Shown: positions 2,723-13,015 of the stretch, one piece after another | Numbering within the stretch: the stretch's first letter is position 1 | Layout: the number at the start of each line of letters is the position of its first letter | Origin: Octopus sinensis | Taxonomy: Eukaryota | Reading direction: 5' to 3' | NCBI RefSeq assembly: GCF_006345805.1 | Contig: NW_021826325.1 | Location: 1 to 13,300 of the forward strand | Length of the DNA: 13,300 nucleotides | The notes under the pieces: model-generated | The model's database searches: none | Seen by the model: only the letters and a program-made list of their open reading frames with translations | Told to the model about the DNA's origin: nothing | Position numbers and translations under genes: made by a program

Positions 2723-2991
2723 GATACATTGATTGATTCATATAGATAAATAAGTGTATATAACGTGCGAGTGAAGAATGGAGTCGGTGATATCACGTTT
2801 ATTCCACTATTTACAAATGCTGCGATAAAATATGGATGACAAGTCACAAAATATGTTGGAAAATAGAAGAAAGCAACGATACTCTCATATCGATGACTTA
2901 ACATAGTTCTATATTTGAGAAGTGAGGAATTCTGTACATTATTTACATTATTTACATTTGACGGATATTTGTCCTCATCTTGTTTGTTGTT

Positions 2992-3037
2992 AACATAACA
3001 TTTCGGCTGATATACCCTTCAGCCTTCATCAGGTGTC
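2992..3037 (-). ncRNA. Minimal type I hammerhead ribozyme motif
   Basis: Minus strand reads GACAC-CUGAUGA-A-GGCUGA-agggUaUa-UCAGCC-GAAA-UG-UU-AUGUU. The CUGAUGA and GAAA core boxes are intact, stem II is a perfect 6 bp, stem III is vestigial, and stem I has 4 pairs plus a core-proximal C-A mismatch. Confidence 0.7.
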
Positions 3038-3087
3038 TTGGGGAAATTTCAAACCTGGCTTCTCATTCCTAAGTTATTTTTCCGATG

Positions 3088-3158
<71 letters not shown>

Positions 3159-3288
3159 TTATTATTATTATATTATTATTATTATTTAGGTCACTGCCTG
3201 GAATCAGACTCGGCAGTGACCTGAATAATAACAACAACAACAACAACAACAGCAACAATAACAATAATAATAATAATAATAATAATAA
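3088..3288. repeat. (CAT)n(TAT)n - central hairpin - (AAC)n(AAT)n, internal to the fold-back element
   Basis: Mirror-image trinucleotide tracts on either side of the 11-bp stem and 13-nt loop at 3188-3222. Confidence 0.9.
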
Positions 3289-4026
3289 ATATGTGACCCG
3301 CAGCAAACAAGCTGATGTTGACCAGAAGCAAACCCATCAGTAGCTACGGAGCTCAGGGCTAAAAGCAGAGAGCGAAGGTTTCATCCTGGCTGCTCAAGAT
3401 CAAAGCCTATTAACCCGGAACTTCCAGGCCAATGTGATGAAAAATGGAGCAGACCCAAAATGCCGATTCTGCAACGACATGATTGAAACAGTGGACCACC
3501 TAATCTCTGGATGTAAAGTCTTAGCACCAGTGGAGTATAAATTAAGACATGACAGAGTTGGCCAATATCTCCACTGGCTAATAAGTCGGCATTACAATAT
3601 CAAAACTGCCGACAAGTTGTATAATCACACCCTGAGGCTGTAACTGAAGGAGAAAATGTAACCATTCTGTGGGACTTTCCAGTACATACAGACCGAACCA
3701 TCAAGGCCAATAAACCAGATATTGTTGTGAAAGACCAAAACAATAAAGTTTGCTTATTGATCGACATGAGCATCCCCTGTGATCATAATATCTCAGCGAA
3801 AGAGTTTGACAAGCTCAGAAAATATAAAGACCTACTCATTGAAATTGAGAAAATGTGGCATCTCAAGGCGGTTACAATACCAGTGATCGTAGGAGCACTA
3901 GGAATGATCAAGAAGGGAACCGAAACTTATATGAGAATGATCCCTGACTTACCATCCCTGCAAGAAGTGCAAAAGATTGTCTTAACTGGTACATCACACG
4001 TATTGAGAAGAGCATTGTCGATGTGA
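3289..4026 (+). pseudogene. Disrupted C-terminus of non-LTR ORF: post-RT region, CCHC zinc knuckle, RHD motif, PD-(D/E)xK endonuclease
   Basis: Reads YVTRSKQADVDQKQTHQ*LRSSGLKAESEGFILAAQDQSLLTRNF...CRFCNDMIETVDHLISGC...RHDRVGQYLHW.... A frameshift at ~3630 continues as PEAVTEGENVTILWDFPVHTDRTIKANKPDIVVKD...CLLIDMSIP...KLRKYKDL...IPVIVGALG...LRRALSM*. One in-frame TAG (3341-3343, probably former TGG) and a 1-nt deletion. Confidence 0.92.
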
Positions 4027-4190
4027 GAACTGTTGCTGCTCATGTATTTTAATTTAACTTTAAAAAAAAAAAATTAACGAACTACTGAGTTTGGTTTAAT
4101 AGCCTACCAATGTATACTATGAGTTTCTTTGCCCTAGGAGTCGGGAAGACACTCGGCAAGAAATGGAAGCAAATTTGAAAGAAGAAAAGA
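3289..4190 (+). mobile_element. 5'-truncated non-LTR retrotransposon with restriction-like endonuclease (R4/Dong clade-like), including 3' UTR
   Basis: Degenerate ORF C-terminus followed by a ~165-bp 3' UTR ending in an A-rich stretch. (AAT)n on both sides. Confidence 0.9.
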
Positions 4191-4229
<39 letters not shown>

Positions 4230-4266
4230 GTAATAGTAATAATAATAATAATAATATTAACAACAA
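4191..4266. repeat. (AAT)n tract (right remnant of the LINE target)
   Basis: Directly visible. Confidence 0.95.
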
Positions 4267-4316
4267 CATCGGAAAAATACGTTAAGTATGAGAACCCAGG
4301 TTCGAAATTTCCCCAG

Positions 4317-4362
4317 GACACCCAATGAAGGCTGGAGAGTACATCAGTCGAAATGTTATGCT
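4317..4362 (+). ncRNA. Degenerate (probably inactive) hammerhead motif in the right arm
   Basis: GACAC-CCAAUGA-A-GGCUG-gagaguacau-CAGUC-GAAA-UGUU-AUGCU. The core CUGAUGA is mutated to CCAAUGA; stem II is retained with a G-U pair. Confidence 0.55.
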
Positions 4363-4585
4363 AACAACAAACAAGATGAGGACAAATATCCGTCAAATGT
4401 AAATAATGTAATTGACTTAATATGTTCTAGATCACGATTTTAATCATCAAACAACGTTTGTAATTATCAAACCACGTCACAATTAATAATTTACAAAGTA
4501 GCTGTTTGCTGTTCTATCCCCTAAATGTATACGGACTTTCGAACAATTCAGCTTCAGGAATATTTGCGTCTTTGTCTTCCCACAG

Positions 4586-7648: not shown

Positions 7649-7840
7649 TTTACTCTTCATGTATGTTGGTCACACGTGTAATTGGTAACAATTGCATTTT
7701 AAAATTTATACTGATAAATCTTCCTCGACATTCGGTAGAAACAAATGATATTCATATAAATTCGTGTGTTTTTCTCTCACACATCGCACGCACTGCTCTT
7801 TATATTTTCATACTTTCCTTCGTTAATATTACATGTAGGT

Positions 7841-8250
7841 AAGATGGCGAGGTGGCAGAAACGTTAGCATGCAGGGCAAAATGCTTAGTGATAGTTCGTC
7901 TGTCTTTACGTTCTGAGTTCAAATTCCGTCGAGGTCGACTTTGCCTTTCATCTTTTCGGAGTCGATAAATTAAGTACCAGTTACGCACGGGGGTCGAATC
8001 TAATCGACTTAATCCGTTTGTCTGTCCTTGTTTGTCCTCTCTGTGTTTAGCCCCTTGTGGGTAGTAAAGAAATAGGTATTTCATCTGTCTTTACGTTCTG
8101 AGTTCAAATTCAGTCGAGATCGACTTTGCCTTTCATCCTTTCGGAGTCGATAAATTAAGTACCAGTATCGTACTAAGGTCGATCTAACCGACTGGCTCCC
8201 TCCCACAAAATTTCGGGCCTTGTGCTTAGAGTAGAAAAAAAGAAGAAAAA
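7841..8250 (+). mobile_element. tRNA-derived SINE family 1, dimeric form (head + core + tail A + second headless core + tail B)
   Basis: A-box-like tggcagaaacg; B-box gagttcaaattcc at 7915-7927 and again at ~8100-8111. The core gaggtcgactttgcctttcatc(c/t)tttcggagtcgataaattaagtaccag occurs twice and, from memory, resembles the Meta/Sauria SINE central domain. A-rich end. Confidence 0.85.
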
Positions 8251-8462
8251 AAGGCGGCAAGCTGGCAGATTCGTTAGCATGCCGGGCGAAGTGATCGGCT
8301 GCAGTCATCCGTCTTTACGTGTTCTGAGTTCAAATTCCGCTGAGGTCGACTTTACCTTTCATCCTTTCGGGATCGATACATTATGTATCAATTGCTTACT
8401 GGGATCTAATCGACTGGTCCCTTCCCTCTAAAATTTCGTGCCTCGTTCCTAGAGTAGAAATG
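8251..8462 (+). mobile_element. tRNA-derived SINE family 1, monomer
   Basis: aaggcggcaagctggcagattcgttagc head, B-box at 8326-8338, core, tail ...cctagagtagaaa. Confidence 0.88.
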
Positions 8463-8484
8463 AATATTACATATAGGCCTTTAA

Positions 8485-8702
8485 TGCGGCGAGCTAGCGG
8501 AATCGTTACCGAGCTTGAAAATAACAATGCTAAGCTGCATTTTCTCCGAGTTTAGGTTGCGAGTTCAAATGCCGCCGAGGTAGACTTTGCTATTCCTTAT
8601 TTCTGGGTCGATGAACTAATTACCAGTCGAGCACTGATGTCAATGTAATCGACTTACTACCTCCTCTAAATTTGCTGGCCTTGCGCTGATATTTGAAACC
8701 AA
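8485..8702 (+). mobile_element. tRNA-derived SINE family 1, older copy
   Basis: gcggcgagctagcggaatcgtt head, gagttcaaatgccgccgagg, tail ctggccttgcgctgatatttgaaacc. Confidence 0.8.
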
Positions 8703-8715
8703 TGTTATATAGAAT

Positions 8716-8910
8716 TGGAAGTTGCCAGAATCTTTTGCTCACCGCTAAGCATTTCTTGTCTGTATGTTCTGAGTTCAAATTCCGTCTGAATCGAGGTTGC
8801 TTTTCACCCCTTCGGAGTTCACAACCTAAGTACCAGTCGAGTATTGGGTTCAATGTAATCGACTTACAACCTCCCCCGAAATTTCTGGCCTTGTGCTAAA
8901 ATTTGAAACA
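8716..8910 (+). mobile_element. tRNA-derived SINE family 1, older copy
   Basis: gttctgagttcaaattcc, taagtaccagtcgagtattggg, tail ctggccttgtgctaaaatttgaaac. Confidence 0.8.
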
Positions 8911-8928
8911 GATGCAACATATAAAGAT

Positions 8929-9683: not shown

Positions 9684-9824
9684 ATTTTTCTTTTACTACA
9701 GGCACGTTCATTATTGTTAATTATTGCGGGTTATAAGAGGGTCCTGACAGAATCCGAAAAATCAGTGTTTTACGAGTATAAACATGCATGTACGTGTGTT
9801 TCGTTGGGGTTGGTGCATCCGTAA

Positions 9825-9979
9825 TTTGTCAGTTGGTGTTCGTTTGTTTACGTTCCCGTAACTTAGCGGGTAGAATAAGTACCATACTTAAAATACGTAC
9901 TGAGGTCGATCTGATCGAATAATGATTCGAGGTGGTGCCTCAGCATGGTCGCACTCCTACGAGTGAAAGAAGTAAAAGT
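9825..9979 (+). mobile_element. Degenerate 3' half of SINE family 2
   Basis: tttacgttcccgtaacttagcgg...tagaataagtac...ggtcgat...ggtgcctcagcatggtcgca...agtaaaag aligns with 11220-11367. Confidence 0.75.
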
Positions 9980-10011
9980 GCAGTATCGTTAGAAGTGAGT
10001 ATGACTTTTAA

Positions 10012-11145: not shown

Positions 11146-11164
11146 GCTTAGTAATATTAACATA

Positions 11165-11380
11165 GTGTCTGTGTCTGTGTTTGTCCCCCTAGCATTGCTT
11201 GACAACCGATGCTGGTGTGTTTACGTCCCCGTCACTTAGCGGTTCGGCAAAAGAGACCGATAGAATAAGTACTGGGCTTACAAAAGAATAAGTCCCAGGG
11301 TCGAGTTGCCCGATTAAAGGCGGTGCTCCAGCATGGCCGCAGTCAAATGACTGAAACAAGTAAAAGAGAAAAGAGAAAGA
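11165..11380 (+). mobile_element. 3' half of SINE family 2 (5'-truncated)
   Basis: Near-identical to 12405-12615 (ttgacaaccgatgctggtgtgtttacgtccc...gactgaaacaagtaaaa). Ends in (AAAGAG)n. Confidence 0.9.
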
Positions 11381-11513
11381 GATAGTTTAAAGTGTCGCTC
11401 TACTACAATACAGCTTCAAATATATTCTTGTTTATTCTGTTAATTTTAGCATCAATTATTTCATTCTATTTTACACTTAACTGGCGCCGATTTACAATAT
11501 TGTACATCCGAAT

Positions 11514-11728
11514 AAGGCGGCGAGCTGGCAGAATCGTTAGGGCGCTGGGTAAAATACTTAGCAGCATTTCGTCCGTCTTTACGTTCTGAGTTCAATTTCC
11601 ATCGACGTCATCTTTTCTTTTCTTCCTTTCGGGTTCGATAAAATAAGTACCAGTCGAGTACTGGGGTGGATGTAATCGACTTAACACCCTCCCGAAATTT
11701 CCTGGCCTTGAGCCAAAACGTGAAACCG
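11514..11728 (+). mobile_element. tRNA-derived SINE family 1, full-length monomer with TSD
   Basis: aaggcggcgagctggcagaatcgttag head, gagttcaatttcc B box, core and tail. Flanked by atattgtacatccgaat (11497-11513) / atatcatacatccgaat (11729-11745). Confidence 0.92.
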
Positions 11729-12081
11729 ATATCATACATCCGAATTAATATAGATTCTTCATATATAATATCACAATTATCAGGAAAATGAGATATTAAT
11801 GAGAGGACATTAAATCAATGTTTCACTCCTTTGTTTAGTTAGAGAATGTCGAAGTGGGGACAAATCTATCATTCTAGCAATTTAAAATTTCCAGTTCTCT
11901 TGAATTATTGAAAAGTTTCCTTGATTTACGACTAAAATAATTTAGAGGAAAATTGTCAGCACGTCAGGACATTTTTTATGATCCTCTCCAAATTGGGATG
12001 ATTAATTAACAACTCATAAAATAGCCGTCTTCTTGTTTCAGTTTCAAGGTGCTTCTGAAAAGGAGGGGCGAGACATCCGCT

Positions 12082-12200: not shown

Positions 12201-12212
12201 ATATATATATAT
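12082..12212. repeat. (TA)n microsatellite
   Basis: Directly visible. Confidence 0.97.
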
Positions 12213-12616
12213 GTGGCTGAGTAGTAATAGCTTGCTTACGAACCACATGGTTCCGGATTCAGTCCCACTGCGTGACACCCTGAGCAAGTGTCTTCTACTA
12301 TAGCCTTGGGCCGACCAAAGTCTTGTGTGTGGATTTAGTAGATGGAAACTATATATATATATATGTATGTATATATATATATATATATATATGAATGTGT
12401 GTGTATGTGTCTGTGTTTGTTCCCCCAACATGACTTGACAACCGATGCTGGTGTGTTTACGTCCCAGTAATTTAGTGGTTCGGCAAAAGGGTCCGATAGA
12501 ATAAGTACTTGGCTTACAAAGAATAAGTCTTGGGATCGATTTGCTCGACTAAAGACGGTGCTCTAGCATGGCCACAGTCAAAAGACTGAAACAAGTAAAA
12601 TTGTAAAGAGAAAGAG
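12213..12616 (+). mobile_element. Near full-length tRNA-derived SINE family 2 (head + CORE-like domain + internal TA/TG microsatellite + 3' tail)
   Basis: A-box-like gtggctgagtagtaa, B-box-like ggattcagtccc, caccctgagcaagtgtcttctact, internal (TA)/(TG) tract at 12350-12410, tail shared with 11165-11380. Confidence 0.88.
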
Positions 12617-12798: not shown

Positions 12799-13015
12799 TC
12801 TTTTATCTTTTATGTGTTTCAATCATGATGGAGCACCGTCAAGAAGGAGAATTTTAGTTTACCTAATGGATCTCAGTGTCTATATTTATCTTTAAACCTG
12901 GTAATCATTCCATCAGCTTCTTTTGCCGAACTGCTATATTACGGGGACGTAAAGACAGCAGATCCGGTTTTAAAGTGGTGGTGGGGGACAAAGGCAGACA
13001 CATTGACACACACAT
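12799..13015 (-). mobile_element. Degenerate 3' half of SINE family 2, inverted orientation
   Basis: tcttttat..tgtttcaatcat..tggagcaccg and ttttgccgaactgctatattacggggacgtaaa...gggggacaaa..cagacaca are reverse complements of blocks in 11165-11380 and 12405-12615. Confidence 0.8.

Follow-up and report, generated by a model that had tools for sequence, protein, structure and literature searches.

A tRNA-Arg-type head in the terminal repeat of a coding Penelope element from Octopus sinensis, a likely internal Pol III promoter

The 13,300-nucleotide stretch of Octopus sinensis DNA analyzed here (the window) carries a copy of a retroelement family in which one sequence is both the head of a tRNA-type SINE and part of the terminal repeat (pLTR) of a coding Penelope element. 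Based on sequence comparison, we propose, with a probability of about 0.65, that the tRNA-Arg-type head in this pLTR acts as an internal Pol III promoter and that the window holds the head-to-head junction of a truncated insertion. The SINE-like copies of the family are best read as by-products that arise when the Penelope RT initiates internally. By definition, SINEs are LINE passengers transcribed by Pol III; if Pol III drives this family, internal initiation by the RT would turn an autonomous element into a source of SINE-like copies. In practical terms, annotation would label such copies SINEs or tRNA pseudogenes when in fact they are the ends of a Penelope element.

Layout of the insertion in the window

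The insertion occupies positions 2905–4412 and is composed of two arms joined head-to-head, with an 11-bp target duplication on its flanks and an unrelated retrotransposon nested inside. The inverted repeat around the center pairs 2943–3158 with 4196–4411, and the two arms are about 90% alike outside the repetitive part. The features of the insertion are as follows:

2894–2904, plus strand: left copy of the target-site duplication, 11 bp with one mismatch relative to the right copy (exact 8-bp core found by script)
2905–3088, minus strand: left arm, pLTR tail +1 to about +179, equal to the first ~50 codons of the Penelope ORF; "long" end with one-sided extension (the ORF continues from the tail in L017 and L031–L060)
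2992–3037, minus strand: minimal type I hammerhead motif of the left arm (from the alignment of family copies)
3089–3186, minus strand: left-arm spacer, (AAT)n/(GAT)n
3187–3213, minus strand: head +55 to +81, the 3' portion of the tRNA-derived head, its B box degenerate; the left arm is 5'-truncated here
3212–3223, plus strand: start of the right arm, head +70 to +81; 3212–3213 are common to both arms
3224–3288, plus strand: right-arm spacer, (AAC)n/(AAT)n, first part
3289–4190, plus strand: nested later insertion, the 3' end of an unrelated non-LTR retrotransposon, 5'-truncated and frameshifted (ORFs 3344–3643 and 3625–4026)
4191–4266, plus strand: right-arm spacer, (AAT)n, second part
4267–4412, plus strand: right arm, tail of the pLTR from +1 to about +145 (the "short" end), with a broken hammerhead core
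4413–4423, plus strand: right copy of the target-site duplication

At the fold-back center, the antisense head (+81 to +55, 3187–3213) meets the sense head (+70 to +81, 3212–3223) with an overlap of 2 nt. The hairpin fold of 3180–3230 has a z-score of −9.0, and none of 200 shuffled sequences was equally stable. An earlier reading of the window, made from its sequence only, had described the minus strand across this center in agreement with what is found at 3211–3189, and the plus arm resumes at 3212 as it had stated. The outer arms of the fold-back are not adjacent: a non-LTR fragment of about 900 bp (3289–4190) interrupts the plus arm within its (AAT)n spacer.

In the window copy, the left arm was cut short within the B box. 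This B box has two changes, and a scan for GWTCRANNC gave five matches in the window (5.1 expected), none of them at the center; the B-box likeness of the window taken alone would be weak, and it is the family comparison that settles the tRNA origin. The long end at 2905, the short end at 4412, and the 11-bp duplication with one mismatch match the known footprint of Penelope insertions, which combines an inverted truncated arm, a one-sided tail, and a target duplication (PMC8557442, PMC3846280). Two other assignments were ruled out: the center is not the 3' hairpin of the nested non-LTR element, as it matches the tRNA-derived head, and the left flank is the target duplication rather than a continuation of the ORF.

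The nested fragment carries a zinc knuckle and a restriction-like endonuclease motif (zf-RVT, E = 1.7e-4, under the Pfam cut-off) and is presumably R4/Dong-like. A PDB search with its ORF returned 0 matches, and the Atlas returned unnamed clusters only. Non-LTR elements with a zinc knuckle and a restriction-like endonuclease, from at least two families, frequently land in the (AAT)n spacer; besides the window insertion, such cases are present in L164 and L280, whose spacers contain the 3' end of the same nested element, and in L170, L207, L213, and L251. The spacer is also entered by a repeat of roughly 600 bp whose two ends lie in (AAT)n (L172, L181, L188, and L275, downstream of the head; L008, L115, L312, and L315); this repeat may be a nonautonomous partner of the endonuclease elements.

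The tRNA-derived head and the Penelope ORF

In longer copies of the family, the head is 81 nt long and has an A box, TGGCGTAGTGG, at +14 and a B box, GAGTTCGATTCC, at +57. The tRNA remnant that had been noticed at the center is thereby borne out, as extension of family copies upstream of the window's truncation point recovers both the A box and the B-box consensus. Family copies also agree with the parent proposed for the window, namely a tRNA head, an (AAT)n spacer, and a hammerhead/pLTR tail, cut within the head and doubled head-to-head.

Among six tRNA isotypes of this genome that were compared with the head, tRNA-Arg(TCT) gave the best match, with 49 of 73 positions identical and z = 8.6 (300 dinucleotide shuffles), whereas the other five gave z-scores of 3.6–6.3; an isotype beyond these six could fit better. 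The identity to tRNA-Arg is 9/11 and 10/12 in the A and B boxes and 30/50 elsewhere in the head. While this alignment to genomic tRNAs supports the A/B-box head anticipated by the sequence-only reading, the annotation programs call no tRNA: ARAGORN found none in the window, in 30 loci, or on the head consensus at a lowered threshold, and Rfam reported neither a tRNA nor a hammerhead in the window or the family loci. The cloverleaf fold is lost in the head, and the head start forms a palindrome and a hairpin of −11.6 kcal/mol. We considered whether the head also serves a second SINE body and rejected this, since 12 of 21 tail-less head copies have tail or element sequence beyond an insertion or a long spacer and the remaining nine share no new body by eye. 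As a separate observation, L146 contains seven tRNA-Cys-like genes in a tandem cluster within 3 kb.

A genome search with the left arm gave 3713 candidates, 40 of which were scored. Exact 25-mers from the head start, the head end, and the tail occur 1315, 3477, and 4148 times in the genome, respectively, compared with 0 for reversed controls, and copies diverge by 6–9%. Together, the counts and the divergence imply, as a rough estimate, tens of thousands of family arms.

The head is a fixed part of a coding element. The order is ORF stop, about 25 nt, head, (AAT)n, and a tail that holds the hammerhead motif and the ORF start, and L095 presents the ORF stop followed some 25 nt later by head, spacer, and tail. 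The head directly follows the ORF end at 26 of 30 ORF-end loci (23 of 27 once four near-identical loci are merged); in the remaining loci, it follows a short insert in one and is absent in three. The exact 32-nt junction between ORF end and head occurs 84 times in the genome. This junction is an imperfect palindrome (L095:4960–5000; ORF-end loci L100–L129), perhaps a scar left when a fold-back picked up the tRNA head. In L017 and the loci found by its downstream sequence, the tail reads in frame into the ORF, with an in-frame ATG at about tail +21. One full-length element (L360) starts at head +1 and continues through spacer, tail, and the whole ORF to a second head, which is split by another SINE, and a second tail; L361 is a partial tandem. 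Moreover, the majority base of 34 ORF-linked copies differs from that of 156 head-start copies at only 1 of 260 columns, and CpG-type decay accounts for most of the strongest differences. Because the head is fixed behind the ORF and short and ORF-linked copies have a common consensus, we regard the family as one element rather than a SINE and its partner, and the head-(AAT)n-hammerhead tail unit is the pLTR of a coding Penelope element. The separate class of nonautonomous SINE that had been suggested from the window is not supported by this comparison.

The ORF contains an RT domain (RVT_1, E = 9e-9). Its C terminus is nearest to GIY-YIG clusters (score 0.95), a lead in which 18 to 19% of cluster members carry GIY-YIG, and the motif is visible by eye; no match of note was obtained for the C-terminal part in Pfam or NCBIfam, and no relatives of the endonuclease part turned up in a metagenome scan. 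The ORF consensus is split into frames of 601 and 186 aa, and among the RT matches listed, no ORF is intact, the longest open frame being 551 aa. The RT and GIY-YIG-type ORF and a pLTR that flanks it and holds its first codons fit EN+ Penelope-like elements of the Penelope/Poseidon type. The element is Penelope-like, and its putative placement in the Penelope/Poseidon clade is drawn from the domain order and characteristic motifs. Another ORF fragment, at L099:2409–3134, appears by eye to belong to a different Penelope-like family and has no BLASTP similarity to the endonuclease part described here.

Ends of the copies and the template RNA

The 5' ends were sampled from the first 100 B-box matches in genome order, which left 96 arms after four duplicates were dropped. 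While 35 arms end within the head at +13 to +57 and 11 run 55–691 nt into the ORF, 50 end at 0 to +12, and the corresponding hazards per nt are 0.010, 0.003, and 0.089. Among the 61 arms that reach head +12, 50 stop within 0 to +12, compared with 7.4 expected from the within-head hazard (binomial p 1e-35). For eight of these 50, which are palindromic junctions, the aligner gave positions of −7 or −10; the palindrome at +1 is, by reading, used in 13 of the 50 junctions and unused in 37. The samples were picked by exact patterns, which favors young copies, and some arms begin at annealing points rather than at true cDNA ends. Arms without an inverted partner (n = 26) split 7, 13, and 6 over the within-head, head-start, and ORF classes (p 1.5e-8). 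Of 33 loci that pass through the ORF interior, four have an upstream head, three of which begin at +1, +2, and +10, and the fourth is a tandem. This accumulation of 5' ends points to a template RNA whose 5' end is fixed about 13 nt ahead of the A box, the position expected for a Pol III start of the tRNA type. Such a defined start would open the Penelope cycle to testing with respect to the template RNA, the formation of the head-to-head arms, and the role of the hammerhead.

In addition, several loci (L017, L032, L034, L037, L038, L042, L046, L047, and L048) return to the tail (+8, +14) or the head (+1, +20) at one shared point after some 120 nt of ORF, making mini tandem units that possibly mark a third initiation site or an RNA end; the switch point coincides with the end of the query, so a selection bias is possible.

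The 3' ends fall into two classes. In 447 unique tail matches, a sample that is partly length-selected, 187 end at +138–158 and 220 at +177–179, and none ends at the predicted ribozyme cut (+90/91). One long and one short tail end are paired in 43 of 46 fold-back rows, and a target duplication is present in 25 of the 46 (0 of 46 controls), with some insertions counted once per arm. Simple insertions show a clear target duplication in 3 of 19 cases (0 of 19 controls). Two RT initiation sites inside the template, demonstrated in vitro for Anolis Poseidon, account for such long and short ends (PMC11167929).

The hammerhead motif has the core CUGAUGA, a bulged A, a 5-bp stem II, GAAA, and a palindromic stem III; the core, the bulged base at 9/10.1, G10.1-C11.1, and the palindromic stem III agree with the list for metazoan Penelope-like elements in PMC4209133. 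In the alignment of this young family, 93% of cells are paired, with no compensatory change and no covariation. The left-arm motif of the window has two changes from the family majority and a predicted cut between 2997 and 2996. Internal 5' starts are somewhat enriched at tail +90–97 (12 of the 60 within +40 to +120, P = 0.013), and a similar bump is seen at +105–112. Judging from these positions, ribozyme cleavage would set at most a minor share of ends, and the two 3' end classes lie away from the predicted cut, contrary to the ribozyme-defined processing suggested in the sequence-only reading. A minor role for cleavage is in line with the report that uncleaved RNA is the main substrate for PAc (PMC11167929).

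A Pol III transcript that traverses the element would have to avoid TTTT terminators. No TTTT occurs over the 2.3 kb of the ORF consensus in sense orientation, compared with a mean of 2.6 in codon shuffles (P = 0.039), and G and C runs are as frequent as expected from the codon shuffle; by dinucleotide shuffle, the P value of the deficit is 0.10. The head consensus and the tail copy that was checked are also free of TTTT. Decayed ORF copies have 0.30 TTTT per kb, compared with 0.84 per kb in the ORFs of nested elements (8.4 kb, similar T content), and the nested fragment of the window is likewise TTTT-free in 740 nt. The deficit is modest, and we treat it as suggestive only. In three raw unstranded RNA-seq runs from a species of the same label, reads covered the head at depths in the hundreds, the tail at up to about 2000, and the 5' part of the ORF at 1–12, and neither start nor end sites stood out. 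This coverage mirrors the genomic copy structure, and we read it as passenger transcription that is neutral on Pol III.

Taken together with the end positions, the preferred model would run as follows. Pol III would start about 13 nt ahead of the A box, meet no TTTT, and continue into the ORF. The RT-endonuclease of the element would then begin reverse transcription at internal sites in the tail (about +145 or +179), comparable to those of the Anolis element in vitro, priming at both nicked strands or folding back. Initiation in the first pLTR of the RNA would yield a head-spacer-tail copy of about 300 bp that resembles a SINE, and initiation in the second pLTR would yield ORF-linked copies. 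Two such cDNAs, or one that is folded back, may join via microhomology to give a hairpin like that in the window. The protein might be translated from the same RNA or from Pol II read-through. In a stronger form, which we hold to be possible but somewhat doubtful, the autonomous Penelope is transcribed by Pol III from end to end (~2.6 kb) from a captured tRNA-Arg promoter, with TTTT purged and one RNA serving as template for full-length and SINE-like copies and possibly also as the message. If this were true, a coding retrotransposon would be its own SINE, and SINEs could originate directly from a Penelope terminal repeat.

The lost cloverleaf counts against the promoter model, as does the palindrome and hairpin at the head start, which could stop or redirect the RT. 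Rotifer Penelope pLTRs likewise open with palindromes (PMC3846280), and Penelope pLTRs have been described with promoters as well as 5' palindromes (PMC6765202, PMC3846280). The tRNA sequence might have been captured passively, with Pol II making the RNA and with a Pol II start, the junction hairpin, or RNase P-like cutting producing the accumulation of ends at head +1. The 13 head-start junctions that use the palindrome are in keeping with this, L123 folds back there from the other side, and Kojima argues that Pol II is obligatory for autonomous elements (PMC10886601). Nevertheless, we consider passive capture unlikely. A stalled RT should stop at the 3' foot of the hairpin (+16), but the ends reach beyond it to +0 to +7; RNase P would be expected to cut at the tRNA +1 position (+7), and the ends lie upstream of this as well. 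Furthermore, the pile-up persists in copies without fold-back, the A and B boxes have stayed nearer to tRNA-Arg than the rest of the head, and no splice joint is present among the RNA-seq joints listed.

Alternatively, the short copies could stem from a separate nonautonomous SINE, with a tRNA head and a Penelope tail, that has short master loci of its own and borrows the Penelope enzyme. Copies that start at the head do outnumber the ORF-linked ones (50 versus 11 in the 5'-end sample), 24 of 30 heads taken in genome order have no ORF end upstream, and the short tandems in L017, L032, L034, and L046, in which 120 nt of ORF stand between two tails, could be masters. This alternative nevertheless seems quite improbable, given that the head belongs to the autonomous element, that no diagnostic base separates the 156 head-start from the 34 ORF-linked copies, and that full-length copies share the same start site. 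In Anolis Poseidon, the template has to include a stretch of ORF past the initiation sites (PMC11167929); by analogy, solo copies that end at +145 or +179 would lack that stretch.

Relation to known elements

The octopus element and the EN+ Penelope/Poseidon elements of the Anolis PAc type (PMC11167929, PMC3846280, PMC8557442) share an ORF with RT and, at its C terminus, a GIY-YIG-type domain, a pLTR overlapping the ORF start, and a minimal hammerhead, as well as an inverted 5'-truncated arm, a one-sided tail of 30–40 bp, two RT initiation sites, and target duplications. What sets the octopus pLTR apart is its opening, a tRNA-derived A/B-box head followed by an (AAT)n spacer. No tRNA-derived head in Penelope/Poseidon pLTRs is described in the available text of PMC3846280 and PMC4209133, where the word "tRNA" is absent, and that of PMC8557442 has one unrelated mention.

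The combination of a tRNA head and a hammerhead is already known from the schistosome Sm-alpha and Sj-alpha repeats (PMC2770079, PMC6765202, PMC8490949), which resemble the octopus family in having a tRNA-derived Pol III head, a type I hammerhead, and the form of a high-copy short repeat. They are described as noncoding SINE-like repeats in which the ribozyme frees monomers from multimers, whereas in the octopus a coding element has the unit as its terminal repeat, and RT initiation sites rather than the cut define where the unit ends. A Pol III promoter derived from a small RNA within a retrotransposon terminal repeat is likewise found in the TRIMp3 elements Cassandra, Helenus, and Ajax (PMC10886601). 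These are nonautonomous LTR elements with a PBS and a PPT, and their autonomous partners are held to use Pol II of necessity and to be unlikely to share the LTR (PMC10886601). In the octopus, by contrast, the coding element itself bears the tRNA-derived repeat, with an RT-endonuclease ORF in its interior and head-to-head insertions. Animal non-LTR retrozymes (PMC7761336; bioRxiv 10.64898/2026.07.22.740005) are also short hammerhead repeats tied to Penelope pLTRs, but they are tandem, and their accounts, as available, describe no tRNA head; the octopus family is dispersed and head-to-head, with a fixed 5' end.

Of the traits of a tRNA-derived SINE (SINE2), the octopus copies have the A/B-box head at the 5' end but do not form a distinct lineage that shares the tail alone. 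In the literature covered, no tRNA-derived head in a Penelope pLTR was reported, and the presence of such a head inside an autonomous Penelope pLTR is new here; Repbase, Dfam, subscription journals, and supplements lie outside this scope and may annotate the family. A literature search found no paper on the octopus SINEs OR1 and OR2. The window itself contains other SINE-like repeats. A cluster at 7840–8920 and 11513–11740 (D16, D18, and D19) consists of five or six copies of a repeat that is distinct from this family, has B-box-like motifs, and is probably a tRNA-derived SINE. A further abundant SINE-like repeat is represented by copies and fragments at 11160–11380, 12212–12600, 9800–9980, and 12880–12990, not all of them in the same orientation.
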